Shown here in pieces: positions 7,367-23,392 of a stretch of DNA of 64,000 nucleotides; within the stretch, counting starts at the first letter, position 1; each line of letters begins with the position of its first letter. Location of the stretch: the NCBI GenBank assembly GCA_002372275.1, contig DFFP01000009.1, positions 5,833 to 69,832 of the forward strand, read 5' to 3'. The notes beneath the pieces are model-generated. The model worked only from the letters and a program-made list of their open reading frames with translations, searched no databases and had not been told where the DNA came from. Position numbers and translations under genes: made by a program. This DNA is from Alphaproteobacteria bacterium UBA3773. GTDB taxonomy: Bacteria; Pseudomonadota; Alphaproteobacteria; RF32; CAG-239.

Positions 7367-7458
7367 GATATTTCATATATTTAAGCCTGTTTTCCACAGG
7401 GGATTGACACGTATAATAAAAATCTTATATATATAAGACAATTGATGAAAAAAACGGA

Positions 7459-7488: not shown

Positions 7489-7632
7489 ATGTTTAATTGG
7501 GTTGCGGCAGAAATGTCTGTTTAACGGGTTTGGGTGGGAAAACGAGAAAATCGGGCTTGAATGTGAGGATATGAATTTGGAAAGAAAAAATGTTGTTCAA
7601 ATAACAATTTTTTAAAAAATGAAAGGAAAATA

Positions 7633-8358
7633 ATGGTTGGAATTTTGGATATTTGTCGTTCGGCTGCGGATATAACGGCATCGCAGAGGCCGGATGATTT
7701 GTTTAGAGTTGATACGCAACATAATGCGATTTTTTTATCAATCGCCGAAAATGAATTGGAGAGTTTACTCAGGTATGGAAATTGGCCCGAATTGATTAAA
7801 GAAGGGCGTTTTAGAACACAGCCGAACAAAACTTATTATGCATTTGATCAAATTACTGCGGATTTCTATTGTTTAACCCATAATACGCTCTTTATTAAAG
7901 ACAGAAATGAACGCGTTTTAGGCTCATTCACGTATGAAGAAGCGATGCAAAGAAAGTATTTAAAAACTTCTTCGGGGGAACTTGAATTTAGAATTGAAAA
8001 TAACGGTTTGCGCTTTTTAAAAGCACCTCTGGCGAATTTGAGTGTTGTGTTTTTGTATCGCTCAAATACGATTTGCTATGACGCGGTGACAGGCGAAGAA
8101 AAATGCAAATTGGAAAAAAATGATGATGTGCCTGTGTTTGATCAGTATATCGTTAAACTCGGTATTATATGGAGATGGCTTAAGCGTAGCGGGATGGATT
8201 ATGCCCAGGAATATAACGATTATCAAAATGAACTGAAAAGAAAATATGCACTAACGCTTGAAACACATGATATTTCGCTTGTTAGCGGATATGAACCTTC
8301 AAGATTTAACAATACAATCAATTTATGTGTCGGTGGAGACGGGTATGACAGAAGTTGA
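7633..8358 (+). CDS. Phage protein, hypothetical (241 aa)
   Basis: ORF overlapping the portal-like gene start by 14 nt. No recognisable motif. Confidence 0.5.
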   Translation: MVGILDICRSAADITASQRPDDLFRVDTQHNAIFLSIAENELESLLRYGNWPELIKEGRFRTQPNKTYYAFDQITADFYCLTHNTLFIKDRNERVLGSFTYEEAMQRKYLKTSSGELEFRIENNGLRFLKAPLANLSVVFLYRSNTICYDAVTGEEKCKLEKNDDVPVFDQYIVKLGIIWRWLKRSGMDYAQEYNDYQNELKRKYALTLETHDISLVSGYEPSRFNNTINLCVGGDGYDRS

Positions 8359-10117
8359 AATTTGGATTGAAAAAATACGTCGATCGGAAAAAAAATATGC
8401 TGATTATTTTGATAAAATTAAAACGATACGTCGCTATTATAAAAATGAAAATTCAAGAAATAAACAAAATATTTTTTGGGCAACGATTGAAACCTTAAAA
8501 CCGTTCTTGTATTTTAAGGAACCGAAAGTATTTATCAAGCAAAAAGAAAAATCAGGGCCGCTTGCGCTTTCGGTCGCTTGTCGAATTTTAGAAAAAGCTT
8601 TGGCTTGGAATATGGAACAAATCGATTTTGACAGCGTGATGAAATATGTCAGAAACGACTTTTTGCTTTTTGGATTTGGGGCCGCTTTTGAAAGGTATGT
8701 GCCGACATTTAAGACGTGTCACGTCAATGAAAACGGACATGATGTTTCACTACAACTCTTAAAAGATGAAAAAATTGAAACGGTTTATATCCCTCCGGAA
8801 GATTTTTTGGCCGATACGGAAAAAGTCAATGTGTGGGAAGATTGCGGGTGGATTGCACGTAAAATCGTTATGAGTTTGTCTGAAATTCGCGCCCAATTCG
8901 GTGAAGAAATTTTTCAAAAAATTGTGCAAAAAAACGGTGCCGACAAAATGGACTCCATGACGGTTTATGAAATATGGGATAAGAAAAGTAAGCGTATTTT
9001 ATATTTGGCTTTGGAATTTGCGTTTGAATTTTTGAAAATCAAAGAAGATGCGTTCGGACTTGAAGGATTTTGGGCCTTTCCGAAACCGTTGTTTGGGACG
9101 CTCGCAAATGACGGGATTATTCCGACACCTGATTTTGACCAATTAAAGCCTCTGCTTGATGAACTCTCCGGTGTGACGGGACGTATGCAACTTTTGATGC
9201 AAGCCATGAAGGTCACAGGGGCATATGACAGCAGTTTTCCGGAACTTGCAAATATCTTAAATAAAGATGTGACATTGGTTGCATTGTCGGATTTTGAGCG
9301 TTTAAAAGAAAACGGCGGTATTAAAGGAGTTGTGGATTTCGCCCCGATTGAACAATATGTGTCGGCGTTAACTGTTTTGGCATCAAGACGCGAGGATATC
9401 ATGACACAAATTTATGATATGACCGGGGTCAGCGATATTATGAGAGGAATGTCGGATAAAACGGAAACGGCAACCGCAGTTGAGAAAAAAACGAACTTCG
9501 GGACACTTCGCAATCAGGACAGACAAAATGATATGGTGCGCTTGATGACAAACCTCTTTCAGATGAAAGCTGAAATGATTTGCAGTTGTTTTGATGCAGA
9601 GCACTTGAAAATGTTTGCAGATTCTGAAACGCCTGATGATGTTGTTCAAACAGCTATTCTAATCTTAAAAGAACAAAAATTACGCGGAATGATTTTGGGA
9701 GTGGAAACAGATACGGCATTTGCGCAAAGTCATATCTTAGAGCAAACGCAAAAAAGTATTTTAGCTGTGCATGGCTTGATTAAAGAGGCATTTGAAATGG
9801 TTTCGATTCAACCTTCGCTGTTGGGGCTGTATCGACAGATGATTTCGACACTTGTTTCGACGATGCCTTGCGCCAGACAATATGAGCCCGTGATGGAGAA
9901 AGTATTTGAACAAATTGATGAAGCTCTTCGTTTGCCGAGTCCGCCTACGCAAGATATTTTGGCCTTGCAGCTCAATCAGCAAAAACAAAAAATGTGGCTC
10001 GACTATGATATTAAAACTAAAGAACTCGCTTTGAAAAAAGAAGAGGTTGAAATCAAAAAAACGGAAGCACTTCATAAGGTTTGTGCCAAAGAACATACCT
10101 TAAAAACAAAGAAGTGA
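8345..10117 (+). CDS. Putative portal (head-tail connector) protein
   Basis: Size (about 590 aa), a position in the head module, and a coiled-coil-like C-terminal tail. This is an architectural assignment only. Start placed at the ATG at 8345. Confidence 0.45.
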   Translation: MTEVEIWIEKIRRSEKKYADYFDKIKTIRRYYKNENSRNKQNIFWATIETLKPFLYFKEPKVFIKQKEKSGPLALSVACRILEKALAWNMEQIDFDSVMKYVRNDFLLFGFGAAFERYVPTFKTCHVNENGHDVSLQLLKDEKIETVYIPPEDFLADTEKVNVWEDCGWIARKIVMSLSEIRAQFGEEIFQKIVQKNGADKMDSMTVYEIWDKKSKRILYLALEFAFEFLKIKEDAFGLEGFWAFPKPLFGTLANDGIIPTPDFDQLKPLLDELSGVTGRMQLLMQAMKVTGAYDSSFPELANILNKDVTLVALSDFERLKENGGIKGVVDFAPIEQYVSALTVLASRREDIMTQIYDMTGVSDIMRGMSDKTETATAVEKKTNFGTLRNQDRQNDMVRLMTNLFQMKAEMICSCFDAEHLKMFADSETPDDVVQTAILILKEQKLRGMILGVETDTAFAQSHILEQTQKSILAVHGLIKEAFEMVSIQPSLLGLYRQMISTLVSTMPCARQYEPVMEKVFEQIDEALRLPSPPTQDILALQLNQQKQKMWLDYDIKTKELALKKEEVEIKKTEALHKVCAKEHTLKTKK

Positions 10118-10140
10118 TGTATGTTTGCAAAGGAATAAAA

Positions 10141-11700
10141 ATGATTAAAAAAAATGTCAACAGGTCTGTGAAATCTTTAGACTTTATTTTGCCGGCGCCT
10201 GTTGGAGGACTCAATAAAAAAGATCCGCTCTCGGATATGCCCCAAAATGATGCCGTGGTGATGGAAAACTATATTCCGATGAACAGTGTGGTCCAATTAA
10301 GGCCCGGATATGAAAAATATGTGTCGCTCGGAGATTTTGTAAATGGCAAAAAAGTGGAAACTCTTTGTTCGTGTCATATGGAAAATAAAAGTAAGATGAT
10401 AGCTGTTTATGACGGATATGCTTATGATGTATCAACAGCCTCAGCGCGCCGATTTGAAAATGTTCAATTTAGCCGTAGCTTATGTCAAACGGTTTGTTAT
10501 CGGGGGCATCTTTATTTTATGAATGGTGCGGATACGCCAAAAGTTTATTATATTGATGACCAGCAAGCAGAACATTTTGAGGATTGGGGATTTGTGGGAG
10601 AGGGGCTTCCTTCGCACAATATTGTTAGTGCCGGCGTCAGTCATGAATTTTTGTGGTTTATTGAACAAAATTCAACGCACGCTTGGGTTTCGGAAGTTGC
10701 CGGAAATATCGCAGGGACACTCAAACTGTTTGATGTTGCGCAAATCTTAAAATGGGGCGGACATTTGATGGCAGTTTTTAACTGGACAATCGACGGCGGG
10801 GAAGGTTTGGATGATTATACCTGTTTAATCAGTAGCGAAGGTGAACTGCTTATCTATCAGGGATATAACCCAAATGATGCAAATCATTTTACATTGATGG
10901 GGTCTTATAAATTTTCAAAGCCGATCGGATATCAATGTGTTCTTCCTTTGAAGGGTGATGTCATTATCATTTCAGAAGACGGTTATTTGCCGCTTTCGCA
11001 AGTCTTAAGCGCCAATAATACGCCCGGAACATTGGCCGCGTTTTCGGATAAAATAAATAATCTTGTGATGGAACGTGCGGCGCTTTATAAAAAAAATGAC
11101 GGGTGGCAAGGAATCATCTACCCAAAAAAAGGGTATGGCATATTTAATGTGCCCGTCAGTAACACATTTGAGCAACATGTAGTTAATCTGCAAACAGGGG
11201 CATGGTGCGTTTTTAAGAATATTCGCTCATTTTGTTGGTGTCTTTATGATGAAAATTTGTTTTTCGGAACGGACTGCGGTATTTGTCGCTTTGATAAGGG
11301 GTATTCGGATAACGGTTTGGCAATTGAAGGACGCATTGAGCAAGCTTATACGAATTTGGGCACAAATGCTTTAAAAAAAATCACACTGATCAAACCACGA
11401 GTGAAGGCAACAGGTAATTTTTTATTGGTCATCGGGACGGATATGGATTTTGAAGACAGAAAAATTTCCGATTCCGTTCAAATGGAATTTGAAAATAAAA
11501 AATTTGCAGTTTGGAATCAGGCGGTTTGGAATGCGGATTTTTGGCAGTCGTCAGGTAAGGGAAAAATACAGGGAAAATGGATTGCAAATTCGGCAACCGG
11601 ATTTAAGGCAAGTGTTGTGTTTGAAACAAAAACAAATGCCAATGATATTCAATGGTATGAAACAGCTCTTCGGATGGAAACGGGAACGGGAATTTTGTAG
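10141..11700 (+). CDS. Phage structural protein, function unknown (about 520 aa)
   Basis: Large ORF between the portal-like gene and the GroES-like gene. No recognisable motif. It could be a tail-tube or nozzle-type protein. Confidence 0.4.
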   Translation: MIKKNVNRSVKSLDFILPAPVGGLNKKDPLSDMPQNDAVVMENYIPMNSVVQLRPGYEKYVSLGDFVNGKKVETLCSCHMENKSKMIAVYDGYAYDVSTASARRFENVQFSRSLCQTVCYRGHLYFMNGADTPKVYYIDDQQAEHFEDWGFVGEGLPSHNIVSAGVSHEFLWFIEQNSTHAWVSEVAGNIAGTLKLFDVAQILKWGGHLMAVFNWTIDGGEGLDDYTCLISSEGELLIYQGYNPNDANHFTLMGSYKFSKPIGYQCVLPLKGDVIIISEDGYLPLSQVLSANNTPGTLAAFSDKINNLVMERAALYKKNDGWQGIIYPKKGYGIFNVPVSNTFEQHVVNLQTGAWCVFKNIRSFCWCLYDENLFFGTDCGICRFDKGYSDNGLAIEGRIEQAYTNLGTNALKKITLIKPRVKATGNFLLVIGTDMDFEDRKISDSVQMEFENKKFAVWNQAVWNADFWQSSGKGKIQGKWIANSATGFKASVVFETKTNANDIQWYETALRMETGTGIL

Positions 11701-11708
11701 GAGGAACG

Positions 11709-11951
11709 ATGAAAGCAATAACAGACAGAGTGTTAATTATGCTTGATGAACAAAATGATGGAAATCTTTTAATTCCTGAAACGATTGAGCGGCCTCAAAC
11801 AACAGGAATTGTGATTTCGGTCGGAAATAAAGTGAAAGATATTCAAAAAGGTGATCATGTCGTTTTTCACGCTTTTGATGAAGTACCTTGTTTGGAAAAT
11901 AGAGTGGTTGCCGTGAGGGATAAATCTATTTTGGCCATATTGGAAGAATGA
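11709..11951 (+). CDS. Phage-encoded GroES-like co-chaperonin (Cpn10 family)
   Basis: The 80-aa protein aligns along its whole length with GroES. ITDRVLIMLDE matches LHDRVIVKRKE, TTGIVISVGNK matches the region around EVLAVGNG, and IQKGDHVVFHAF...ILAILEE matches VKVGDIVIFNDG...DILAIVE. Confidence 0.7.
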   Translation: MKAITDRVLIMLDEQNDGNLLIPETIERPQTTGIVISVGNKVKDIQKGDHVVFHAFDEVPCLENRVVAVRDKSILAILEE

Positions 11952-12184
11952 TGGAAAAAACATTGAAAGAAATATTGGAAAAAATGATGAGGAAAAAAAC
12001 AGTTCGAGAAAGAATTTGTGCTATGCTCATCGGAGAGGCTCAAAACGGGAATTTTAAGGCCTTGGACGCTATTAGAGATATTATAGGCGATAAAGATAAA
12101 TCGCATCGCGATGAGCCTGAGCCGGTGACAAATATCAAAATCGAGGTGATCGATGGGACGCATTATCAAAATCAAGATTGCTAA
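11948..12184 (+). CDS. Small phage protein, possibly the small terminase subunit
   Basis: 78-aa ORF immediately upstream of and overlapping TerL. The assignment rests on position only. Confidence 0.3.
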   Translation: MMEKTLKEILEKMMRKKTVRERICAMLIGEAQNGNFKALDAIRDIIGDKDKSHRDEPEPVTNIKIEVIDGTHYQNQDC

Positions 12185-13472
12185 GCCTTTTTTGCCGCTG
12201 ATCAGCACAAACAAAAGAATTAAATTGTATTGGGGCGGGCGCGGCGGCGGAAAGAGCTATGCATTTGCCGATGCACTTTTGCTTAAAGGGTTGGAGAAAA
12301 AACTTTTAATTGCATGCGTGCGTGAAATTCAAGACACAATTAAAGATTCCGTTCATCGCTTACTTTCAGACCGAATTGAATTTTATGACTTAAAAGAATA
12401 TGAAGTCAAAGAAAGCGAAATTGTAAATACCTTAAACGGGACACGCTTTATTTTTAAGGGTCTGCGCAATCAGGATGCACATAAAATTAAATCGCTTGAA
12501 GGCGTGGATATTGTTTGGATTGAGGAAGCCCAGACCATTACAAAAAAATCGTGGGAGATTTTGTCGCCGACCATTCGAAAAGACGGGTCGGAAATTTGGA
12601 TTTCGATGAACAGAGAAGAAGAAAATGATCCGCTTTGGGTGCTTTTAGGCAGCCATCAAGATGAGCGTACGCTCATTGAAAAAGTCAACTTTTATGATAA
12701 CCCTTTTTGTCCTGAAGAACTGAAACTGCAAGCCAAAGAATGTCTGGCTCATGATGAAAGCACCTATCGGCATATTTGGCTCGGAGAGCCGCTTTCTCAA
12801 GGGGCACACAAGTTGATTGATGCCGGACTTGTGAAACATGCAATGCAACCGAAAATTTCGGAAAGTACCTCGCCACTTATCATCGGGCTTGATGTGGCGC
12901 GTTTCGGAGATGACCAAACTGTTTTTTGCTTGCGCAAAGGGCGAAAATGTTTGTCTTTTTTATCTTTTGAAAAAAAAGATAATGTCGAAGTGGCAAATAT
13001 TGCGACAAATTTGATTGAAACAAAACGTCCCTTACGTATTTTTTTGGATGCAGGCGGTGTGGGCGGCGGTGTGTTTGATATCTTAAAAGACAGAGGTTTT
13101 AAGGATATCATAAGAGGTGTTAATTTCGGCTCTAAAGCGATTAATGAAGAGCGTTATGCCAACAGAAGAGCCGAAATGTGGGATCATCTGCGGCAATGGC
13201 TGACAGAAGAAGTCGAGTTGCCAAATAATGGTATGCTCTATGATGAATTGTGTACCGTGCGCAAAAAATATGATGCGCTTGGAAGACTCTTACTCGAAGA
13301 AAAAGAAGAAATAAAAAAAAGAATAGGGCGTTCGACCGATTGGGCAGATGCCCTCGCGTTGACTTTTGCAGAGCCTGTTTATGATAAAGGACACACCAGA
13401 TTTTATGGTAACGGGCAGGTTTGTTTGGAAGAAATGTTTCAGGCTTCAAATCAGCGTATGCCGGTGTGGTGA
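12153..13472 (+). CDS. Terminase large subunit
   Basis: Walker A YWGGRGGGKSYAFA, Walker B DIVWIEEAQ, and a C-terminal nuclease-like domain. Length 439 aa. Confidence 0.85.
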   Translation: MGRIIKIKIAKPFLPLISTNKRIKLYWGGRGGGKSYAFADALLLKGLEKKLLIACVREIQDTIKDSVHRLLSDRIEFYDLKEYEVKESEIVNTLNGTRFIFKGLRNQDAHKIKSLEGVDIVWIEEAQTITKKSWEILSPTIRKDGSEIWISMNREEENDPLWVLLGSHQDERTLIEKVNFYDNPFCPEELKLQAKECLAHDESTYRHIWLGEPLSQGAHKLIDAGLVKHAMQPKISESTSPLIIGLDVARFGDDQTVFCLRKGRKCLSFLSFEKKDNVEVANIATNLIETKRPLRIFLDAGGVGGGVFDILKDRGFKDIIRGVNFGSKAINEERYANRRAEMWDHLRQWLTEEVELPNNGMLYDELCTVRKKYDALGRLLLEEKEEIKKRIGRSTDWADALALTFAEPVYDKGHTRFYGNGQVCLEEMFQASNQRMPVW

Positions 13473-13486
13473 TAAGGAATAATCAA

Positions 13487-13696
13487 ATGTTTGAAGAGAT
13501 TTTGTTGCCGGGTGGGGCTGTGGCCTCGTCGGCACAAGAGCTGGATGCTTACCTTAAAGAAAATCAGGTGGCACTTTCAGCAGATTACAGCTTAGCATAT
13601 TTGAAAAATGTGCGGCAGAAAATTAAAGCCGATCAAAGAAGAGAGGCTTTTGAAGATTTCGTTAACGAATATAAAAAAAGGATTTGGAATGAGTGA
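13487..13696 (+). CDS. Small phage protein, hypothetical
   Basis: ORF between TerL and the scaffold gene. Confidence 0.35.
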   Translation: MFEEILLPGGAVASSAQELDAYLKENQVALSADYSLAYLKNVRQKIKADQRREAFEDFVNEYKKRIWNE

Positions 13697-14552
13697 TAAT
13701 CTCAGGGAAGAATTAAAAGAAAATTTTGCTTCGGCTGATTTGCAAAGCAAAGAAAATGTGGCAGATAATACAGAGGAAGGAATTTCGCAAGATCAAAGTC
13801 TGGCGGAAAATTCGATTCCCGCGCCTCAAAGTTATCCGAAAGAATTTCAGGAACTTTTTAAGACGCTTTCGCCAAAATGGCAGGGATATTTGCTTGAGCG
13901 CGAAAAACAAGTCGAAAAAGGTTTTTCTGAACTTGGAAATAAAGTAAGCAGCTATAAATGGTCAGACCAAATTTTTGAAGACAGAAAGGAAAGATTAAAG
14001 GCACTCGGATATAACGGCGCAAAAGATTATATCCAAAAATTGATTTCAATTGATGATGCCTTGTATCAAAATCCGGCAGAAACTTTGAAAAAAATAAATG
14101 ACATTTACAGCTCACAAACAGTCAATAACAATGTTTCTATGACAGATGAGCAAAGAAAAATTTGGGAAAATATTGCGCTTGCTTCAAAAATGTTTGAACA
14201 AAAACAAAATGAGGCCGCAATGTTTGATTTGAAGCGATTTCAAGATGCTGTGACAGAGGACGGAAAATTAAAACATCCTTTTTATAAAGAGCTTGGCTCT
14301 GAAATGATCGGTGTTTTGAAAAGCGGGGCAGCCGGCAATTTGGAAGAAGCTTATCAAAAAGCTTTGTGGCTCAATCCTGCTACGCGTGAAAAAATGATTG
14401 AAGAGAAAATAGGAAATGTTTTGGAAGAAAAATTTTTGGCTGCTCAAAAAGCAACCGAAGCCTCTTTTTCGCCTTCATCAAAAACAGAACAAAAAGTTCA
14501 AGAACTTTCTTTGCGCGAAGAATTGGAAGCAGCTTTTAGAAAGGAAATTTAA
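13689..14552 (+). CDS. Putative scaffolding protein
   Basis: Acidic, Gln/Glu/Lys-rich, predicted helical protein located immediately upstream of the capsid gene. Confidence 0.5.
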   Translation: MSDNLREELKENFASADLQSKENVADNTEEGISQDQSLAENSIPAPQSYPKEFQELFKTLSPKWQGYLLEREKQVEKGFSELGNKVSSYKWSDQIFEDRKERLKALGYNGAKDYIQKLISIDDALYQNPAETLKKINDIYSSQTVNNNVSMTDEQRKIWENIALASKMFEQKQNEAAMFDLKRFQDAVTEDGKLKHPFYKELGSEMIGVLKSGAAGNLEEAYQKALWLNPATREKMIEEKIGNVLEEKFLAAQKATEASFSPSSKTEQKVQELSLREELEAAFRKEI

Positions 14553-14555
14553 TTT

Positions 14556-15539
14556 ATGACAGTCAATACAAATTATGATGCGATTTTTACAACAACAATT
14601 GAAAATCGCTCAAAAAAACTGGCCGATAATGTAACAAAAAATAATGCCTTGTTGCAAAGATTATCGGCAAAAGATAAAATCAGAACCGTAGACGGCGGCT
14701 CGAAAATTTTGGAAGAATTGGAGTATGGCAACGGTGATCTTGTATGGTATTCGGGATTTGATACAATTTCGTACAGCGGTCCGGAGCTCTTCTCGGCAGC
14801 CGAATATGCTTTGAAACTTTGTGCTGTTCCGGTAGCCGTTTCGGGTGAAGAAATGCTTAAAAACGCCGGCACTGAACGGATGATCGATTTGTTTGAAAAA
14901 CGTATTCAAAATGCCGAAAAAACAATGGCAAATAAAATTTCGGAAGCTCTTTATTCTGACGGCACAGGCAGCTCCGGTAAGGAAATCGGCGGTTTAAAAC
15001 TTTTGGTGGCGGATTCTCCTTCAACAGGAACAGTCGGTGGGATTAACCGTGCAACCACCGGAAACGAATTTTGGCGCAATCAATCAAGCGTTATTTCTTC
15101 TGCTGCCGGCGCACTTTCATCATCAACCATCTTAAAAAAAATGAATGATGTGTATTTGGCTTGTTCAAGAGGAACAGATAAGCCCGATTTGATTGTGACG
15201 GACGATTATTTATATGATATGTTTGAAAGTGCTTTGCAACCATCACAACGCTTTTGTGACCCGAAACTTGCCGACGCCGGATTTCAATGCTTGAAATATA
15301 AAGGCGCTGATGTGATTTTTGACGGTGGACAGGGCGGAAGTTGTCCTTCAAAGCATATGTATTTCTTAAATACGAATTATCTCTATTTAAGACCGCACAA
15401 AGATCGTAACTTTAAGGTTATCGGTGGCGAAAGACTTTCGATTAACTCTGATGCCATTTACAAAATCATCGGCTGGGCAGGAAATTTAACTATGTCTAAT
15501 GCTGCGCTTCAAGGTGTTCTCGTCGATTACATCGCTTAA
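14556..15539 (+). CDS. Major capsid protein
   Basis: 327 aa. Position after the scaffold gene, with a composition typical of HK97-fold coat proteins. Followed by a strongly structured repeat. Confidence 0.65.
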   Translation: MTVNTNYDAIFTTTIENRSKKLADNVTKNNALLQRLSAKDKIRTVDGGSKILEELEYGNGDLVWYSGFDTISYSGPELFSAAEYALKLCAVPVAVSGEEMLKNAGTERMIDLFEKRIQNAEKTMANKISEALYSDGTGSSGKEIGGLKLLVADSPSTGTVGGINRATTGNEFWRNQSSVISSAAGALSSSTILKKMNDVYLACSRGTDKPDLIVTDDYLYDMFESALQPSQRFCDPKLADAGFQCLKYKGADVIFDGGQGGSCPSKHMYFLNTNYLYLRPHKDRNFKVIGGERLSINSDAIYKIIGWAGNLTMSNAALQGVLVDYIA

Positions 15540-15540
15540 A

Positions 15541-15842
15541 AAACGCGTCTAGCTGGTATCTAATACAAAAAAGTCTGTTTGCGTTCGGTCGTGTACGAAT
15601 AAGTACACTCGTCTCACTCAAGCAGACTTTTCTTATTATATACGCACGCCATCCGTGTTTTTTTGCATTTATAGTGGAAGTTCTATTCTGCGCACCCTTA
15701 AAAAATGTTCGCTCTTTTGGTGAAAACGCGTCTAGCCGGTATCTAATACAAAAAAGTCTGTTTGCGTTCGGTTGTGTACGAATAAGTACACTCGTCTCAC
15801 TCAAGCAGACTTTTCTTATTATATACGCACGCCATCCGTGTT
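15541..15842. repeat. Two near-identical 119-bp tandem direct repeats (period 183 bp), each forming a long nested hairpin
   Basis: 15541..15659 and 15724..15842 differ at about 2 positions. Each copy has a 13-bp stem aaaagtctgtttg/caagcagactttt enclosing a gtgtac...gtacac hairpin. Confidence 0.9.
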
Positions 15843-15873
15843 ATGACGCTTTTTAGAAAAGGAGTATTCATCA

Positions 15874-16896
15874 ATGGCAAGAATGGATGAACAAACATAT
15901 AAAATCATACGTGGTATGAAAACAATTCAAAGACAGCACCCTCAAAAAGGGGAGAGTAAGTGGTATTATTTGGATCCGCGGGGTGCAACAAGAATAGCCG
16001 ATATGGGGGTGATAGACGTTGAAAGTGAGTATGCGCCTAACCCTTATGCAAGAGAAATTTTAATAGATGATATGAAACGCCATGAAGAAGATTATTATAT
16101 TTGGCGGACAAAAGGTGATGAAAAAGTAAGGGCCAGTCATGAAGAGCGTGAAGGAAAAGTTTATAATAGAAATTTGCCGCCTGATGGGGGTAATCCGGGA
16201 GAAGAACATAACTGCAGGTGTTGGGAAGAGGAATTTAAGTTTGAGAAGATGAAAAATGTTGATATGATTGATCTATTGGAAGAAATTGGTGCAGAATTAT
16301 CAGATGATGAGTTATATGACCGAATGTGGGAGAATATTAAAAGATTTGAAGATATTAAAACGTATCCATACCTTGACACAAAAGGATTAATTACAATTGG
16401 TGCCGGTGCAAATGTAAACAATTTGGATGTTTTTTTGAGTTTAAATTTGACAGTCAACGGATTTTCGGCAACAAGAGAACAAAAGTTAGAAGCATATAAA
16501 CAGTTGAAATGGTTGAGTGAACAAAAAGATGAGAAAGGAATGTATCTATATTATAATAGAAGAGCAAAATTTTTTGAAAAAGAAACAAATGTCCGTTTAC
16601 CTGATGTAGAAATACGGCAATTAGCACAAAGGCATATGACAAGTGATTTAAAACATTTGCGGCAAGAATTTGAAAGTTTTGACGAATTTCCTTTACCGTT
16701 AAAAGAAATATTACTGGATATTCAATATAATGTCGCAGGTGGATTGAGTGAAAAAAAATGGCCGAAGTTATACAGAGCTATACGTCAAAAAGATATGTTA
16801 GGCAAAGAAGGAATTGCAGAAAATGTGAATAGGCCGGATGTCGGAAAAAGTCGTAATGATTGGGCAAAAGGAATGGCGCGTTCAATCAGATTCTAA
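15874..16896 (+). CDS. MuF-motif minor head protein fused to a GH24 phage-lysozyme domain
   Basis: N-terminal region carries DEKVRASHEEREGKVY...PGEEHNCRCW, the C-terminal signature of the Phage_Mu_F/gp7 domain. The C-terminal region carries FEDIKTYPYLDTKGLITIGAGA, matching the T4-lysozyme E...D...TIGxG motif. Confidence 0.6.
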   Translation: MARMDEQTYKIIRGMKTIQRQHPQKGESKWYYLDPRGATRIADMGVIDVESEYAPNPYAREILIDDMKRHEEDYYIWRTKGDEKVRASHEEREGKVYNRNLPPDGGNPGEEHNCRCWEEEFKFEKMKNVDMIDLLEEIGAELSDDELYDRMWENIKRFEDIKTYPYLDTKGLITIGAGANVNNLDVFLSLNLTVNGFSATREQKLEAYKQLKWLSEQKDEKGMYLYYNRRAKFFEKETNVRLPDVEIRQLAQRHMTSDLKHLRQEFESFDEFPLPLKEILLDIQYNVAGGLSEKKWPKLYRAIRQKDMLGKEGIAENVNRPDVGKSRNDWAKGMARSIRF

Positions 16897-17319
16897 TTTA
16901 TCGGGAGGTGTGACGCAATATATATCATTTGCAAACTCCTGTTCTTGTGTGTAGTCTTCCCATATATCAAAGTCATTTTCTGCTATTCTTAAACAATCTT
17001 GCGTAATCCGTTCTGTTATTTTAAAAACAAAATATTGTTTAGGACCTTTTTTATCGGGATTATGCCAATACAAATCACATAAAAGAGTGATACGATTTTG
17101 GGTGTTTTCAATAAGTTGACAGTCTCCGGTCATAGCTACCAGATTGTCATCTAAAGGAGTTCGGCTATCAATAGATGTGGGGGTAATGTATGTTAAAGTA
17201 GAGCTTCTGCCTAAAGGCTTCAGAGGCTGATTAAAAATAGGATTAACAAACTGCTCCTTAGCGTTTGCGGTCAAAATAAAAAGAAAAACAAAAATGAAAA
17301 GAAAGAACATTTTTTTCAT
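16882..17319 (-). CDS. Secreted moron protein (signal peptide, Cys-containing), paralog A
   Basis: MKKMFFLFIFVFLFILTANA signal peptide. Shares the C.LIEN...LLC motif and a conserved upstream sequence with 17720..18139. Confidence 0.6.
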   Translation of the reverse strand: MKKMFFLFIFVFLFILTANAKEQFVNPIFNQPLKPLGRSSTLTYITPTSIDSRTPLDDNLVAMTGDCQLIENTQNRITLLCDLYWHNPDKKGPKQYFVFKITERITQDCLRIAENDFDIWEDYTQEQEFANDIYCVTPPDKLESD

Positions 17320-17354
17320 TCATTATACCTCGCTTTAAAGATTCTATATAGGGT

Positions 17355-17726
17355 TTGTTAAAATATGATAAAGGAAATTATGTAAATCATAATAAACGAG
17401 CGACAGCTTTTATTAATGATAGCCCTTTGCGAATTTCAAAAGAGTATATGATTGAACGGATGATGAATCATTTAAGAGAAGATTTAAAACGGGCAAAATC
17501 TAAAAGGAAAGATTTTGATACATACCCAACTCCATTAAAACTTATTATATTAGATTTTTATTATAATAAAGGTAGTTTTTATAATCAACCAGGATTACCT
17601 CAAGCATTAGATGAACGAAATGCGATATTATTTCAAGAAAAAATGGTAAGACATATGAGAGATAGAGATGAATGGACGCAACGACAATTTAACCGTATAA
17701 ATCAAAATTTTTGGAAAATTTATTGA
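17355..17726 (+). pseudogene. Lysozyme C-terminal fragment, a remnant of a module duplication
   Basis: The ORF uses a TTG start inside the repeated promoter sequence. Its product aligns only with the C-terminal half of the lysozyme domain of 15874..16896 (PLKxIxLDxxYN) and lacks the catalytic N-terminus. Confidence 0.5.
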
Positions 17727-18139
17727 TAAGGAGGAATAGTTATTAAACCATCATTTGTGAGGATTTCCTCAAAAATTATGTTTCCAAGATTATCGTAAAT
17801 TTTATGATTAATAATGTATTGTTCCGGTGTCGTTTGGTCTTTTGTTAAAGAAAAAGAGTGATTTGTATTTGTGTGAGATGTACATTCAAGGTTAAGGCAC
17901 TCATTACAAAGCATTTTTATATAAGATTCTTGATTTTCAATAAGAGAACAAGGAATATTTAAGGTAATATTGTTTCGCGAATTTTCATAATATTTCGAAC
18001 TTGGTGTTAAAACATAAAATGCTTCTTTGTCAGAAGTTACTAATTTTTGATAGAAAACAGGATGTAAAAAAAACGTTTTAGTTTGAGCATAAGCATTGAT
18101 GCTCACAATAAAAATGAAAAGAAAGAAAAATTTTTTCAT
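17720..18139 (-). CDS. Secreted moron protein, paralog B
   Basis: MKKFFFLFIFIVSINAYA signal peptide. The same 45-bp upstream element (agattctatatagggtttgttaaaatatgataaag) occurs at 17322..17380. Confidence 0.6.
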   Translation of the reverse strand: MKKFFFLFIFIVSINAYAQTKTFFLHPVFYQKLVTSDKEAFYVLTPSSKYYENSRNNITLNIPCSLIENQESYIKMLCNECLNLECTSHTNTNHSFSLTKDQTTPEQYIINHKIYDNLGNIIFEEILTNDGLITIPPYQ

Positions 18140-18204
18140 CTATGACACCTCGCCTTAGAGATTCTATATAGGGTTTGTTAAAATATGATAAAGAGGGGAT
18201 GAAT

Positions 18205-18453
18205 TGTATGAGCTGTTTTTTTGATTTTGATTGACAATTTTTGTAAATTGTGCCATCCTTAAAATAAGGCAGGGTGGTATCTGCCCCGAGGATTAGAACC
18301 CTCTCACTCGTTGCTAATGAAAGCGTAAAATTTCCTTCCGGTTAAGGCTGGAAGGAGGCTAATAATCGATTATTGAAAATATGCCCGCTATTTCGAGTGA
18401 ATAGGTTCTAACTTCCAGTCGCCTTACCAAGGCGAATTTTTTTATGGAGGCAT
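18205..18453 (+). promoter_or_regulatory. Structured 5' leader with an intrinsic terminator just upstream of the RBS (attenuator- or riboswitch-like)
   Basis: TTGACA at about 18229. Long-range helix ggattagaacc...tcactcg/cgagtga...ggttctaa. Hairpin ccttccggttaaggctggaagg. Terminator cgccttaccaaggcg plus a T8 run ending at 18445. The gene's ATG is at 18454. The antiterminator candidate ggctggaag/cttccagtc overlaps the terminator. Confidence 0.5.
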
Positions 18454-19176
18454 ATGATGAAAAAAATATTTATTATCGGGATATTCAGCTTTATGATTAA
18501 TTTTTCTGCACATGCAGAAATTATAATAGGTTCGGATTGCAATAATAAATGTACTTGGTTTTATGATACGCAAACGCAAGATTTAAGAATTGCTCCAAAT
18601 GCAGGCGCATCAGGGGATTTAGTTGTTGGAAATGGTGGTTCATCTTTTGGAGGTATCACAATCAACAATGTGACAATTGAAGAAGGAATTACAGGTTTTA
18701 ATGCTAACAGATTTAACACGGGGATGGGAACAGGATATACAGGAAAAGGAACATTAAAACTGCCGGAAAGTTTGAAGATGACAACAGCATCCGGAAATAT
18801 AGATTTGGCTTTTCAAGCTCTTGATTTGACGGCGACAAATTTGCAAAGCGTCGATTCACTGTCTATACGGCGTTTGCAAAATGTTATCTTAACACCTAAA
18901 GAAGGTTTTGTATTTCCGAGTAATTTTTTGGGAAGATGGAGAAACAGTAAATATACCGGTGCTTATATTGAAGGGGATATCACTATTCAGTGCCGCGGGG
19001 AAATGGCGCTTTGTGAGCAAATGATGGCTAAAGTGAAAGAATACGAAAATAGTCTCGGGGTTGATTTTTTTGTTCGTTATTTTGATAATAGAAAACGCCG
19101 AATTTATACGATTGACGAGGCTGTTGAGGCTCTGGGTAAGAATAATAAAAATACGTTTAGGTTAAAGTATCGGTAA
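18454..19176 (+). CDS. Secreted protein, paralog of 30952..31809 (conserved KRRIYxIDEA...KNxxTFxLKYR C-terminus)
   Basis: Signal peptide MMKKIFIIGIFSFMINFSAHA. Shares a GS[DE]C...CT[WY].YD N-terminal motif and the C-terminal about 25 aa with the ORF at 30952..31809. Confidence 0.7.
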   Translation: MMKKIFIIGIFSFMINFSAHAEIIIGSDCNNKCTWFYDTQTQDLRIAPNAGASGDLVVGNGGSSFGGITINNVTIEEGITGFNANRFNTGMGTGYTGKGTLKLPESLKMTTASGNIDLAFQALDLTATNLQSVDSLSIRRLQNVILTPKEGFVFPSNFLGRWRNSKYTGAYIEGDITIQCRGEMALCEQMMAKVKEYENSLGVDFFVRYFDNRKRRIYTIDEAVEALGKNNKNTFRLKYR

Positions 19177-19400
19177 GGGAAAAAATAAGGAAAAATCGCC
19201 TTTGAAAGCGCAAAAGCGCGGGCGATTAAGCTCAGATCCCTTAATGACCTGACGCGCCGCGCAGGTCAAGGGATGACAGGGTAAGGTGAAGATGCCTGAC
19301 GCTTTGCTTTTGGCATTACCGGTATGACAGAAAAGAGGATGGCGGTTTCAATATTTTATGTGCACGCTGAAATTTTTTTTAGCGTGTTTTTTTAATACTA

Positions 19401-19961
19401 ATGAAAGGAAAGAAAATGAGCGTTGAATTTTCAATGTTTCAAAGTGCGGTCAGTTCGCAAAATACAAATAACGGTGTTTTTGCAAGGTTTTATGATCGGT
19501 ATGTTAAAACAGGCGAGATGTTAAAAAACGGATTGCCGGAATTTAAAACAAAACTTTATGTCGAAATCAAGGTTAAAGATCAATATGACGTTTTTGATCA
19601 GCCGGCAGAAGAAATACACATCAGGCGTTTTCCAAAAGCGTATGAAATGTATTTACATGAGAAAAAAGAATTACAAAGCGGTACGCCGCTTTTTTTGTTT
19701 GCTTTTTTGGATCAGGGACAAATTGAAACATGTCGGTTTCGGGGAATATATACCGTTGAAAAATTAGCTTCGTTGAATGATTTGGATGCAAAAAATTTGG
19801 GGCTTGAAAAAGAAAAAAAATTGGCACTGAAATTTTTGAAAGCCTCTCAAAATAATCTGGCTGTTTTAAAAGCACAAAATAAAGAAGAATACTACTTGGC
19901 GGAAATTCAAAAACTCAAAGATGAAATTTCGGAGCTGAAAAAAAATGCCGTCCAAATGTGA
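19401..19961 (+). CDS. Phage protein, hypothetical (C-terminal coiled coil)
   Basis: 186-aa ORF whose 3' end overlaps the GNAT gene. Confidence 0.45.
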   Translation: MKGKKMSVEFSMFQSAVSSQNTNNGVFARFYDRYVKTGEMLKNGLPEFKTKLYVEIKVKDQYDVFDQPAEEIHIRRFPKAYEMYLHEKKELQSGTPLFLFAFLDQGQIETCRFRGIYTVEKLASLNDLDAKNLGLEKEKKLALKFLKASQNNLAVLKAQNKEEYYLAEIQKLKDEISELKKNAVQM

Positions 19962-20385
19962 GATTATTTCGGATTTATCAGGCGAAGTGGTGCACTTTGT
20001 GTGTCGGGGATTAAATGAAAATGAAGATTGGGTGGGGCAAAATATTACGCTCGGCATCAAATTAAATCATGAGTTAATTGCAGGAATTATTATCAACGAT
20101 ATCAGAGCAGGTCTTGATTGTTGGCTCACCATTTTTTCGTGCGATAAGAGGTGGTGCAACAAAAGAGTGCTGAGGGCCGTTTTTGATGTGGTTTTTGATT
20201 TTTTAAAATGCAAGCGCGTCGGGGTTATGGTTGATGTTCAAAATGCCAAAAGCCGGACATTGGTCGAGAGGCTCGGATTTCAAAAAGAAGGAATTTTGCG
20301 CGCCTTCTTAAATAACGGACATGATGCGCTGATTTATTCAATGTTAAAAAAGGAATGTCAATGGAGGACAAAAGATAATGAGTAA
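19945..20385 (+). CDS. GNAT-family N-acetyltransferase
   Basis: LVERLGFQKEGILRAF is the acetyl-CoA-binding motif A of GNAT enzymes. Length 146 aa. Confidence 0.7.
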   Translation: MPSKCEIISDLSGEVVHFVCRGLNENEDWVGQNITLGIKLNHELIAGIIINDIRAGLDCWLTIFSCDKRWCNKRVLRAVFDVVFDFLKCKRVGVMVDVQNAKSRTLVERLGFQKEGILRAFLNNGHDALIYSMLKKECQWRTKDNE

Positions 20386-21058
20386 AAGTTTAAACGTTTT
20401 CAGTAAGGTAGGTAATGGTTTGAAAGTTGGCTATAACAGTCAACCGACAAACGATTTTTTGAATTACTTAAATAATTATAATACTTCAAATGTGGATCAT
20501 ACCTTAAACAATTTAACAAGCTGGGCATCAAGGGCCAGCGATAATTTGCAAAATATGGGCGGGTATACATTTCAGATTGACGGCTCGGAAGATTTGAAAA
20601 ATAATATCACAAATGCAATGTATCAAAATTATTTAAGTAAACTTTTGCCGCAATATGAAGCCGAGCAAAATGATTTGCAAACAAGGCTCTTAAATCAGGG
20701 ATTGGGGGTGAATACTGCCGCCTATCAAAATGCGATGAATAATTTGGTATCGGCTCAAAACGGGGCCTTAAATGATGCGATTTCAGAGGCAGTTAATGCC
20801 GGAAATACGGCATATAACAATGATATTCAAAATCAAATAGCTATTGGAAATTTTCAAAATAATGCGGCGCAAAATTATATCAATTTATTGCTTTCGGCGC
20901 TCGAAAATTCGCTCAGCTCTTATGATGTGGCACAAAATAAATATGAGGCCGGAAATAATTTATCGGCAGCGCAAAGCAAAGCGCAAAATCAATCGGTTCA
21001 AAATCAATTAAAGGCTATTAAGATTGCTGCGGATACGGCAAAATCTTTGTGGAGCTAA
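20378..21058 (+). CDS. Asn/Gln-rich phage tail-associated protein
   Basis: Low-complexity N/Q/A-rich 226-aa ORF immediately upstream of the tail-collar fibre gene. Confidence 0.4.
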   Translation: MSKSLNVFSKVGNGLKVGYNSQPTNDFLNYLNNYNTSNVDHTLNNLTSWASRASDNLQNMGGYTFQIDGSEDLKNNITNAMYQNYLSKLLPQYEAEQNDLQTRLLNQGLGVNTAAYQNAMNNLVSAQNGALNDAISEAVNAGNTAYNNDIQNQIAIGNFQNNAAQNYINLLLSALENSLSSYDVAQNKYEAGNNLSAAQSKAQNQSVQNQLKAIKIAADTAKSLWS

Positions 21059-21069
21059 AGGAGGATAAA

Positions 21070-21828
21070 ATGGCTTTTGACAGTGAGGGTAATTTTACAC
21101 GTTTGCATAATTGGGAAAATGATAGATTAAACGATATTGCAATTATTGCAGACAGACACGATGAAGAAGATAACGGCTTTGCACAAGGGTTAAATGAGTG
21201 TTTTTTAAGAGATGGTCGTGTGAGCCTTTCAGGTTCGCTTAAAATGGGAGATCATCAGATTAAAAATTTGGCACCGGCAACTGTTTCAACAGATGCCGTG
21301 AACAAGGCTCAGCTTGAAAATGCATCATCCAATGTGACTGAGGCTTTAACAATTTTGCTCAATAAACTTTTTAAGATCGGCGATATCAAAGCCTCAACAA
21401 GGGCAGCTAATCACGATCACTGGTTTTTGTGTAACGGGCAGGCCATCTCTCGAACAGCGTATTCACAATTGTTTGCACTTATCGGAACAAATTTTGGGGC
21501 AGGTGACGGGACAACAACATTTAATTTGCCGGATTATAGAGGAAAATTTTTGCGCGGCCTTGGCGGGGATTCTGAAGCTGATATTTATACAACCCAAGCC
21601 GAGGGACTACCTAATATTACGGGTTCAGCTTATGTTTATTCGAGAGTGAGCGGTGAGGGCGCTTTTGAAGGTAGCAATAATCAGGCTGGCGGTATTGATA
21701 ATAATGGTTCAGGTAATAAAACTCTTTCATTTGATGCCTCGCGTTCATCAGCGATTTACGGAGCATCAGAGCATGTGACGCCCATCAACCAGGCCGTCAA
21801 TTATTTTATAAAAGTTTTGGAGGAATAA
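21070..21828 (+). CDS. Tail fibre protein with a phage tail-collar domain
   Basis: TTFNLPDYRGKFLRGLG matches the tail-collar motif (FxLPDLRGRF). RBS aaggagg before the ATG at 21070. Confidence 0.75.
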   Translation: MAFDSEGNFTRLHNWENDRLNDIAIIADRHDEEDNGFAQGLNECFLRDGRVSLSGSLKMGDHQIKNLAPATVSTDAVNKAQLENASSNVTEALTILLNKLFKIGDIKASTRAANHDHWFLCNGQAISRTAYSQLFALIGTNFGAGDGTTTFNLPDYRGKFLRGLGGDSEADIYTTQAEGLPNITGSAYVYSRVSGEGAFEGSNNQAGGIDNNGSGNKTLSFDASRSSAIYGASEHVTPINQAVNYFIKVLEE

Positions 21829-21829
21829 T

Positions 21830-22189
21830 ATGACAGGTGTGATTAGAGAAAATGGCAATTTAATTGAAGTCAGGCAAGGGGACAGTTTTGAAATCGACAT
21901 TTGTATCTGTAAAGAAAATGAAAATGTAGATTTAACAGGCGCGACCATAAAAATGCAATGTCGTCAAAAAAGTGATGATGCACTTGTATGGAGCTTAACC
22001 GGCACAGCAGTTGATGTTTTGCATGGGAAAATTTCGCTGATTTTAACACCTGAAAATACTTCGATTGATGTTGGGGATTATAAAACGGATATTGAGGTTC
22101 GATTTTCAGATGGGACAGTTCATACGATTTTTCCGCAGGATGTAAATAAAATCGGAACACTTCGGATAACTGAGCAGGTGACAAAATGA
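21830..22189 (+). CDS. Phage tail-associated protein, hypothetical
   Basis: 119-aa ORF within the tail-fibre cluster. Confidence 0.4.
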   Translation: MTGVIRENGNLIEVRQGDSFEIDICICKENENVDLTGATIKMQCRQKSDDALVWSLTGTAVDVLHGKISLILTPENTSIDVGDYKTDIEVRFSDGTVHTIFPQDVNKIGTLRITEQVTK

Positions 22190-23046
22190 GAATAAAAGAT
22201 GAGAGTGCTCAATTAAATGCGGATCTATCATCAAAAAGTGAGATTATGGTTGATATTAAACCTCAACAAGCTTTTGAGATTGTGTGGCGTGAAGGTGCAC
22301 AAATAGATGTTAAAACCGCATTAAAATATATTAAGTCCGGTGAAAAAGAAATTGATGAATATGTTCAAACATCACTTGAAAGCGCCTTAGAAGCTAAGCA
22401 AGATGTAATCGAAGATTTAGAAAATATCAGATCGGGGGCAAATTTAGGAATAACTTCAGTTCAACCTTCTGATTTGATACTTGCGCTTGAGCAAAAACAA
22501 GACACACTTGTTTCAGGAACGAGTATTAAGACAATCAACAATCAATCTTTATTGGGAAGTGGTAATATTGATATTCAAGAAAGTGGAGCGGTTGACAGCG
22601 TCAATGGTAAAACAGGAACTGTTGTTTTAAGTACAAATGACTTAACAAATGACAGCGGATATATTACAACTTCGGCATTGGCACCTTATGCTTTATCATC
22701 AAGTCTTGCAAGCGTTGCTTTAAGCGGCGATTATGATGATTTGATTAACAAACCCGGTTTTATGCCTGATTACAGCGCAGGAGTAAGTGTTTCTACATCT
22801 CAAGGAAATACATATACGGTTCCTGCAGATGGTGTTATTAAAGCGAAAATAAATTGGAGTGGCTCAACGGTTCTTGATATACGTGAAAATAATAGTAGTG
22901 GAGAACAACTGATTTATTGTTGGCAACAAAACAACAACGGTTCAACTTGTTATATACCTGTCTCAAAAGATATGGTTCTTTATTTTACCGAAAGAAATGG
23001 TGCAGATGTTCAGTTTTATCCATACAAAGGAGTTCAAAATGCTTAA
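22186..23046 (+). CDS. Tail fibre protein
   Basis: VNGKTGTVVLSTNDLTNDSGYIT fibre-repeat motif. Position next to the tail-collar fibre. Confidence 0.6.
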   Translation: MRIKDESAQLNADLSSKSEIMVDIKPQQAFEIVWREGAQIDVKTALKYIKSGEKEIDEYVQTSLESALEAKQDVIEDLENIRSGANLGITSVQPSDLILALEQKQDTLVSGTSIKTINNQSLLGSGNIDIQESGAVDSVNGKTGTVVLSTNDLTNDSGYITTSALAPYALSSSLASVALSGDYDDLINKPGFMPDYSAGVSVSTSQGNTYTVPADGVIKAKINWSGSTVLDIRENNSSGEQLIYCWQQNNNGSTCYIPVSKDMVLYFTERNGADVQFYPYKGVQNA

Positions 23047-23389: not shown

Positions 23390-23392
23390 ATA

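Follow-up and report, generated by a model that had tools for sequence, protein, structure and literature searches.

The locus examined here raises the question of what two near-identical structured repeats are, where they came from, and what they do behind the major capsid gene of a phage-like gene cluster. The window, i.e. the whole 64,000-nt stretch of DNA that was analysed, carries a small cluster of this kind with genes for portal, amidase-like, Cpn10-like, large terminase, scaffold-like and major head proteins, and a tail-collar gene further on. The capsid stop codon (TAA at 15537–15539) is separated by a gap of 334 nt from the next ATG (15874), that of a MuF-like head-morphogenesis gene, and both repeats lie in this gap. 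Coordinates of the features are collected in Table 1.

Repeat search and pairwise alignment revealed that the two units, A and B, are direct copies that are identical at 118 of 120 nt and have a period of 183 nt. This agrees with an earlier reading of the sequence alone (the sequence-only reading), which gave about two differences and a unit length of 119 bp. The mismatches are T/C at 15574/15757 and C/T at 15590/15773. Identity between the units spans exactly AAAACGCG to CCGTGTT and stops at the hairpin base, and the flanks of both units are unrelated. The two inner stems described before were also found: in unit A, positions 15569–15581 pair with 15619–15631 to form a 13-bp stem with one G.U pair, and this stem encloses a perfect hairpin consisting of GTGTAC (15591–15596), the loop GAATAA and GTACAC (15603–15608). 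Beyond the inner stems, the entire 120-nt unit forms a single long imperfect hairpin, the base of which starts at, and includes, the capsid stop codon. The folding energy of the unit is −40.1 kcal/mol for the plus strand (z = −6.2, 0 of 200 shuffles as good) and −43.3 kcal/mol for the minus strand (z = −6.3, no shuffle as good). In a predicted fold of the whole gap (15520–15880) units A and B fold independently, and in the same minimum free energy fold the Shine-Dalgarno region of the MuF-like gene is predicted to pair with the spacer just upstream of unit B.

Table 1. Positions of the repeat units and neighbouring features in the window.
Feature	Position	Strand	Evidence or remark
Major capsid (head) protein gene	14556..15539	+	PHROG phrog_9953, major head protein, E = 1e-108
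Antisense ORF, 102 aa, TTG start, across both units	15496..15804	-	No Pfam match; repeat artefact, not a gene
Unit A	15540..15659	+	Begins in the A-run into which the capsid TAA runs; covariance model 108 bits (minus), 34 bits (plus)
Unit A conserved core	15585-15610	+	TCGGTCGTGTAC-GAATAA-GTACACTC
3.8-kb block without counterpart here in relatives	15540..19362	.	Synteny; between capsid stop and putative ancestral terminator
T-run (seven T) directly after unit A base	15658..15664	+	Sequence; terminator-like scan flags basal stem and T-run
Inter-unit spacer, 63 nt, not duplicated	15660..15722	+	Sequence comparison
Unit B	15723..15842	+	118/120 to unit A; core 15768-15793; covariance model 93 bits (minus), 23 bits (plus)
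Shine-Dalgarno AAAAGGAG and ATG of MuF-like gene	15857..15876	+	Sequence
MuF-like head-morphogenesis gene, 340 aa	15874..16896	+	Pfam Phage_Mu_F 29.5 bits (cut-off 29.6); PHROG head morphogenesis, E = 8e-16
Ordinary intrinsic terminator (CACGCT, loop, AGCGTG, then seven T)	19363..19393	+	Sequence; just before RBS of the conserved next gene

A 20-mer derived from the unit occurs at just two sites in the 64 kb, as compared with 0.01 expected by chance, and no third copy was found in the window by blastn with word size 7 or by a covariance-model search. Exact 20-mers and 26-mers of the unit gave zero matches in the viral and genome collections, and the exact unit sequence is therefore private to this lineage. 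The units also interrupt an independent short-read assembly whose capsid and MuF-like proteins are identical to those of the window: it breaks within them from both sides, one contig (L001) ending 45 nt after the capsid stop and another (L110) starting 61 nt before the MuF-like ATG, as assemblies do at repeats.

Capsid homologs with 63–88% identity were present at 80 loci in species-level MAGs of uncultured gut and rumen Alphaproteobacteria and on 28 viral contigs. A hairpin and T-run lie within 110 nt after the capsid stop in 86 of 94 homologous clusters, which bears out the earlier view that the gap is a terminator position. The relatives have a spacer of 50–100 nt with one GC-rich hairpin after the capsid gene, then an RBS and a conserved gene, and in L002, L032, L035, L038, L047 and L065 synteny identifies the gene right after the capsid as the homolog of window 19401–19961. 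In the window an ordinary intrinsic terminator still precedes this conserved gene; hence, about 3.8 kb (15540–19362) was inserted after the capsid stop, and the terminator at 19363–19393 is likely, judging from its sequence and from a position equivalent to that of the hairpin and T-run in the 86 homologs, to be the ancestral capsid terminator, displaced by 3.8 kb. Units A and B form the left edge of the inserted block. The MuF-like protein aligns end to end in a tblastn search with a homolog in L002 (2656–3687; 343 aa, 68.5% identity), whose gene is placed after the terminase gene and not after the capsid gene. The MuF-like gene has therefore been relocated, and the suggestion that recombination at the repeats had truncated it does not stand.

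Across the homologous clusters, long units are confined to the window, L031, L053 and L065; their presence is sporadic, and they are not a conserved feature of the phage-like cluster. The sequence-only reading had named two findings that together would count against it, and one of them, absence of the repeat from homologous elements, is what most of these clusters display. The only nucleotide match to the window units among the relatives is in L031, where 81 nt corresponding to the right half of the unit are 91% identical. L031 has two units behind its capsid gene, of which the first has the same architecture and a wholly different, fully complementary outer stem. A search of the relatives with a covariance model, built from eight units of the alphaproteobacterial (alpha) type, detected a further unit in L053 (61 bits) and, with weaker scores, units in L065 and behind the terminase gene of L031. 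By this search the copy number appears low: the 64-kb window has one locus, and related sequence totalling about 1.1 Mb has four. The idea of a larger composite mobile element that has a unit at one end was rejected, as the DNA that follows the units shows no relation between the window, L031 and L053. The last 25 nt of the inter-unit spacer, 15698–15722 (TTAAAAAATGTTCGCTCTTTTGGTG), resemble the left end of the L031 and L053 units, with 14 of 16 matches to GTTCGCTCTTTGGGCG of L031; this stretch may be the remnant of a third unit, a reading that is ambiguous. The same stretch is also 89% complementary to 17297–17315.

The part common to four units, the two in the window and the two in L031, defined a core pattern consisting of TCGGTYRTGTAC, 4–9 nt and GTACACTC. 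The pattern matched at least 120 loci in metagenome contigs. In viral contigs, where the family is rare, it had no matches, and a relaxed apex pattern gave nine, about five of them real hairpins. Nearly all of the core-pattern loci listed can be extended to GTACACTCCCTC and form the tip of a long hairpin, and they are therefore not chance matches. In this sample, which was selected by the core sequence, the hairpin length is near constant (about 125 nt; median 123.5 nt, arms of 50 and 47.5 nt), and arm sequences are unrelated between groups of loci while complementarity is kept. The host contigs of the loci listed range in GC content from 0.32 to 0.67, and three 16S 3' fragments that adjoin units share 75–80% mutual identity. 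From sequence signatures, one of these 16S fragments presumably has an E. coli-type 3' end; we further take the 16S that starts in L156 to be of the Bacteroidota type, EF-Tu encoded in L112 to be of the alphaproteobacterial type and SecY encoded in L205 to be of the Firmicutes type. The window units, with their hairpin of about 125 nt, conserved apex and covarying arms (108 and 93 bits), belong to an alphaproteobacterial subfamily of this much larger family.

In the better-folding strand the apex reads GA-GG-GAG-UGUAC-loop(4-9)-GUACA-YGA-CC-GA. It is composed of the pairs G.A, A.G, G-C, G-C, G.A, A.G and G.U, followed by five Watson-Crick pairs under a loop of variable length. The window apex is a slightly degenerate variant, GAGAC-GAG as compared with GAGG-GAG, common to L112 and L031 unit 2. 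Compensatory changes occur at 22 of 42 predicted pairs within the eight alpha-type units. In 120 copies across the metagenome loci, aligned with the covariance model, 86.9% of cells are paired, as compared with 58.5% after shuffling and 23–52% with slid partners, and both sides change at 39 of 42 pairs, counts that rest on an alignment fitted to the model. Copies outside the selection imposed by the search pattern keep the apex, and their 5-bp stem compensates (TGTAG/CTACA, TATAC/GTATA and TGTAT/ATACA). The ends of the alpha subfamily are TAAAAAC-NCG ... CGN-GTTTTTA, and in the wider family the ends are unrelated and the centre is conserved.

The two strands of the units are not equivalent. 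The strand reading GGAG-UGUAC...GUACA-UGAC is designated the F orientation and its complement the T orientation; the F strand, better-folding and purine-rich, corresponds to the minus strand of the window. It folds better in 97 of 104 units, by a mean of 11.4 kcal/mol (p = 7e-18), its internal loops are purine-rich, with 74% purine at unpaired positions, and its mismatches include 174 G.A and A.G as compared with 24 C.U and U.C. This strand asymmetry argues for a single-stranded functional form, either RNA or ssDNA, over a double-stranded protein site. An attC site, a dif/Xer site or a site for a dimeric dsDNA-binding protein was discarded in view of the variable loop spacing and the purine/purine asymmetry.

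The position of the units relative to genes follows distinct rules. The genes next to units are housekeeping genes of diverse kinds, among them tuf, tsf, secY, pgk, guaB, uvrB, flhB and those for ABC permeases. Neighbouring protein genes at the left side of the element comprise 35 gene ends co-oriented with T as compared with nine gene starts on the opposite strand. In 31 of the 35 co-oriented genes the stop codon is located 42–54 nt from the core and 0–5 nt from the hairpin base; on its other side the element keeps no such tight spacing (28–108 nt). In the alpha subfamily TAA or TAG forms part of the basal stem, and units of this type start at the stop codon of tuf, pgk, ABC permease, capsid (window and L031) and tail (L053) genes, with one further unit starting right after a tRNA 3' end. 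The window units lie on the plus strand in the usual orientation of the family relative to the abutted gene. In rRNA and tRNA operons the element is found in the 16S-23S spacer or between tRNAs, always placed so that the F strand is the one transcribed, and a tRNA begins 0–9 nt after the end of the hairpin.

Given these rules of anatomy and position, the window units are probably dispersed palindromic repeats of a REP/MITE-like kind that serve here to terminate the capsid message by a long stem or to stabilise its 3' end. Since the insertion has left the capsid gene without its ancestral terminator, the most straightforward reading is that unit A, backed by unit B, ends or protects that message. 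Each unit would fold in the capsid transcript into a hairpin of about −40 kcal/mol. On the plus strand unit A has the anatomy of an intrinsic terminator (−40 kcal/mol, a basal CGCG/CGTG stem and seven T), with activity that is only predicted, and the alpha subfamily as a whole resembles a long-stem bidirectional terminator in having a GC-rich basal stem between A- and T-runs. Unit A, with its GC-rich basal stem and U7 tract, would then act as a long-stem intrinsic terminator, as a protective hairpin at the 3' end, or as both, and would restore the high capsid and low downstream expression formerly given by the displaced terminator. Unit B is followed on the plus strand by TTATGAC; it would provide a second barrier without a U-tract. 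Of the tandem terminator proposed from the sequence alone, unit A has the anatomy, a hairpin and seven T, and unit B lacks the T-run. Termination or transcript stabilisation by the window units is predicted from their sequence, and two features of the family speak against the terminator reading: the better-folding strand is opposite to the capsid message, and in rRNA and tRNA operons it is the F strand, opposite to the capsid-sense one, that is transcribed. Intrinsic termination as a family-wide role was rejected: a U-tract of at least five T in 8 nt was found in 2 of 73 units of the wider family in one direction and in 8 of 73 in the other, and, being so rare outside the alpha subfamily, U-tracts indicate that termination cannot be the common function of the family.

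The placement among REP/MITE-like repeats follows from comparison with known classes. REPs, BIMEs and REPINs are likewise dispersed, non-coding intergenic hairpins that combine lineage-specific stems with a short motif kept across phyla, are found singly or as dimers or clusters, and frequently adjoin or provide a stop codon. The short tags of REPs are conserved across eight phyla; REPs are situated mostly between co-directional or convergent genes, their ends often supply the stop codon, and roles of their RNA hairpins in termination and mRNA stability have been proposed (PMC3733652). More generally, REP and MITE repeats adjoin coding regions, are transcribed, and stabilise or destabilise mRNA (PMC3733652). 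However, a REP is a stem-loop of 20–40 nt whose stem has the unpaired tag (GTAG or CGTC) at its foot, whereas members of the present family are about 125 nt long and carry the motif at the apex. Neither GTAG nor CGTC is conserved as a tag in the family, and its surroundings revealed no RAYT gene. REPs are present in many copies per genome, and those of the GTAG type flank an associated RAYT transposase gene. For REPs an effect of a hairpin at the stop codon on translation termination of the preceding gene has also been proposed. The window unit is 120 nt long and contains no GTAG; CGTC occurs in it once, at 15546–15549, where other alpha-type units have CTCGTT, CCCGCT or CTCGTA.

MITEs such as ERIC, Correia/NEMIS, RUP and RPE-1 resemble the family in being imperfect palindromes over their whole length of about 100–170 bp, lying beside coding regions and being co-transcribed. 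RPEs occur in Alphaproteobacteria. The size range of MITEs (70–300 bp) and their non-coding nature fit the present units, but in MITE families, each confined to one genus or family, it is the terminal inverted repeats that are conserved, whereas here the ends vary, the centre is kept and the hosts are very distant bacteria; ends are shared within the alpha subfamily but unrelated family-wide. MITEs can terminate, stabilise or destabilise transcripts (PMC3733652).

Rho-independent terminators, such as T-phi of T7, share with unit A the GC-rich basal stem and the A-run and T-run flanks. T-phi follows the T7 capsid gene, and the likeness to it is by position only, directly after a highly expressed capsid gene. 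Stems of intrinsic terminators have 5–12 bp, whereas the unit has a stem of about 50 bp with internal loops and a conserved apex. Integron attC sites are imperfect palindromes too (57–141 nt), strand-specific, starting at the preceding stop codon and able to form arrays. In attC, however, the outer R''/R' boxes (RYYYAAC / GTTRRRY) are conserved and the tip is variable, the opposite of what is seen here, and the context is one of cassettes, as against housekeeping genes and rRNA operons with no integrase. The unit ends AAAAC ... GTTTT are followed by T or ATG, not by purines. The intervening sequences (IVSs) of rRNA and blocks in 16S-23S spacers are, like the family, sporadic hairpins of about 100–150 nt co-transcribed with rRNA. 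IVSs replace helix tips inside 23S rRNA, whereas the family, compared here by description only, is located in the spacer beside tRNAs and also outside rRNA operons; we know of no sequence relation between the two.

That the family may be a class of its own is the first of the other readings to be weighed. According to it, the units would belong to an undescribed class of structured nucleic acid present in multiple phyla: a hairpin fixed at about 125 nt, with a tandem-G.A apex, transcribed in rRNA and tRNA operons up to the 5' end of a tRNA and set a few nucleotides from stop codons. A widely conserved factor would bind or process the hairpin at its apex, and the members would be functional RNAs or RNA-level selfish elements, as opposed to one more lineage-specific repeat. 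Searches for described relatives gave none. With Rfam 15 at gathering thresholds the whole window yielded only two tRNAs, and the unit region at E ≤ 10 only chance miRNA and snoRNA matches below 18 bits; 25 family loci yielded only rRNA and tRNA at gathering and lenient thresholds. Literature searches by the core sequence returned only chance primer matches and those by descriptors (rRNA spacer loops, palindromes) nothing relevant, and BLAST of family units against plasmids and complete E. coli genomes found no members. Such a class is conceivable, and we put it forward tentatively.

Mobility bears on a second reading, in which the units are purely selfish DNA, each a hairpin signal in single-stranded DNA for a trans-acting copying enzyme, e.g. 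a Y1/HUH transposase of the RAYT/IS200 kind. They would then have no role in capsid expression, and their positions at gene ends would be tolerated insertion sites, although a side effect on transcription is compatible with this. The distribution of copies is as such a reading predicts. Lineages have subfamilies of their own, and several carry multiple copies with similar arms at unrelated loci. Tandem arrays are common, with examples in L156 (eight units between two rRNA operons), L172 (three) and L202, L138, L127 and L221 (two each); arrays and nested or chimeric copies, the latter including L031 unit 2, together involve L156, L172, L221, L202 and L031. Contigs break at units, the strand asymmetry fits a single-stranded substrate, and a precedent exists in the REP superfamilies, whose short tag is conserved across eight phyla (PMC3733652). 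Against this, all-against-all clustering of flanking ORFs from the 120 loci gave no recurrent neighbour gene such as a transposase or integrase, and no clean empty site, evident target-site duplication or cognate transposase was found, so that mobility is deduced from the distribution only. The T-A at both ends is part of the palindrome and is therefore indistinguishable from a TA duplication. Tolerance alone would hardly account for how closely one side of the element adjoins stop codons and tRNA ends, or for its strict orientation in rRNA operons, and we consider purely selfish DNA a rather doubtful description of the units.

The strand asymmetry also bears on the proposal that the units are genes for, or parts of, a structured minus-strand RNA with a function of its own, e.g. 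a protein-binding or processing hairpin, in which case their place beside the capsid gene would be a coincidence or would help to halt antisense transcription. The better fold, unpaired purines and G.A excess of the F strand are consistent with this, as is its transcription at no fewer than nine rRNA or tRNA operon loci, where RNase P would release a hairpin that ends so close to a tRNA. In the L156 array each unit, read in F orientation, is followed by U7, and the minus-strand hairpins of the window are followed by U6 (unit A) and U4 (unit B). The constant length and conserved apex across lineages as distant as the 16S 3' regions indicate point the same way. On the other hand, a promoter scan of 15300–16100 detected no sigma-70-type promoter on either strand, the nearest upstream minus-strand gene is 1 kb off and behind an opposing gene, and beside protein genes the orientation of the element puts the other strand in the mRNA. 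The RNA has no Rfam family, and the excess of G.U over A.C is just 1.45-fold. A minus-strand promoter formed by the conserved GATAAT/TATAAT of alpha-type units was considered and rejected, since this motif has no -35 partner and may equally well be a conserved part of the stem. A minus-strand RNA gene is, in our judgement, unlikely.

The sequence-only reading had explained the two copies by recent local tandem duplication or gene conversion of the element's own capsid terminator, which would make them an element-specific double terminator or attenuator. Two copies 98% identical, side by side at the terminator position, are what this explanation would give. It is nevertheless highly improbable, for the repeat is a dispersed one: units of this type also follow tuf, pgk and ABC permease genes and tRNAs in other genomes, and members of the family follow tsf and secY and lie in 16S-23S spacers. 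Homologous clusters have a short unrelated terminator, which survives in the window at 19363–19393. Moreover, the duplicated segment leaves out the spacer and stops precisely at the base of the hairpin, a boundary more in line with two copies of a discrete element than with a segmental tandem duplication.

A small protein, encoded by the antisense 102-aa ORF or by a 60-aa plus-strand ORF (15674–15856), can be dismissed almost outright: ORFs are present on both strands, but both are built from the repeat and have no Pfam matches, the antisense one being, as had been suspected, an artefact that spans both copies, and loop length (4–9 nt) and arm sequence vary among family members, so that no reading frame is conserved. 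A small peptide starting from the SD-like GGAG and AUG of the apex was likewise rejected, as a third of the copies have ACG and the ORFs comprise 4–20 codons.

For the window, dispersed palindromic repeats acting on the end of the capsid message would mean that a phage-like element has swapped a plain capsid terminator for two host-type hairpin repeats at the edge of a 3.8-kb insertion. The family as a whole may be regarded as a new variant of REP/MITE-like repeats, set apart by features of REPs, classical MITEs and attC sites that its sequences lack or do not display, and possibly as a third type of ancient palindromic repeat, conserved at the tip rather than at the foot. Its set of features is unusual, comprising a conserved centre, a fixed length despite unrelated arms, strand asymmetry, strict orientation in rRNA operons and one-sided abutment to genes. 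In practical terms, the units disrupt short-read assemblies and give rise to spurious ORFs. Should the apex be read by a common factor, the family would represent new and widely shared RNA or DNA biology; if there is no such factor, it would stand next to the GTAG and CGTC REPs as a third superfamily of ancient palindromic repeats. The family would also give a handle on why palindromic repeats hug stop codons.

The genes carried by the insertion downstream of the capsid gene are listed in the Table. The two small minus-strand genes encode products that we take, from our own reading of the sequence, to begin with signal-peptide-like starts, and the N-terminus of the 240-aa protein is of a similar kind. 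In L002, a homologous capsid cluster, the MuF-like gene follows the terminase gene and not the capsid gene, and its antisense partner lies there with it. The right edge of the insertion (window 19177-19360) is GC-rich and has an inverted repeat of its own (TGACCTG, 10 nt, CAGGTCA); it has no relation to the hairpin family.

Coordinates and properties of features in the window and at the comparison loci
Feature	Locus	Coordinates	Strand	Description
3.8-kb block	window	15540-19362		separates capsid gene from conserved next gene; relatives lack the block at this position; MuF-like gene, two small minus-strand genes, lysozyme/pesticin-like ORF, 240-aa protein
Second direct repeat	window	17287-17373, 18107-18193		87 nt, 90% identity, spacing 820 nt
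Non-coding stretch	window	18230-18450		220 nt, several hairpins
Tandem hairpin units	L156	60-1080		eight units, period 114-137 nt
Tandem pair of alpha-type units	L221	7803-8082		period 152 nt
Hairpin units	L065	1110-1330		two units after capsid gene
Dispersed intergenic repeats	L031	2650-2906, 4540-4770, 7236-7684		several further repeats in phage-like cluster
Phage-like cluster	window; L002-L109	about 6600-24000 (window)		portal, amidase-like, Cpn10-like, terminase, scaffold, capsid, tail collar
tRNA-Gly(CCC) gene	window	5769-5842	minus	just beyond left end of phage-like cluster

The second direct repeat spans the starts of the minus-strand genes 16882-17319 and 17720-18139 together with the sequence upstream of each, which makes this a duplicated gene module. 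L110, a contig of an independent assembly that encodes an identical MuF-like protein, stops within this repeat at about window position 17368. The non-coding stretch ends in a terminator-like CGCCTT-acc-AAGGCG followed by a T-run. Because this end lies immediately before the ATG at 18454, the stretch may be a cis-regulatory leader; Rfam gave no match for it.

At the metagenome locus L156, on a contig of low GC content (0.34), the units occupy the whole gap from the 5S rRNA terminator to the 16S rRNA gene that comes next. Their orientation is opposite to that of the rRNA genes, and a U7 tract follows every unit when read in this antisense direction. In the metagenome pair of L221 the spacer was duplicated along with the unit, whereas the two window copies have the unit alone in common. 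The units of L065, another homologous capsid cluster, include the tip GTGTAC-loop-GTACAC, are without GA-rich flanks, and scored 26.8 bits against the covariance model of alpha-type units; hence they belong either to a branch of the hairpin family that has diverged strongly or to a separate family. A weak hairpin-unit match (21.5 bits) was found in a third homologous cluster, L031, immediately 3′ of the terminase stop codon. The other repeats of L031 include three direct copies of CCCGTTAATGACAGA at 7340-7430 and a 72-nt repeat common to 4696-4767 and 7574-7645.

The tRNA-Gly(CCC) gene may be the integration site of the phage-like cluster. Among Alphaproteobacteria of gut and rumen, the gene order of the cluster is kept in at least 80 species-level MAGs, and one MAG (JAFSUB01) contains three copies. 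The cluster could represent a family of small prophages with a very wide distribution, or else a GTA-like element that has been domesticated.
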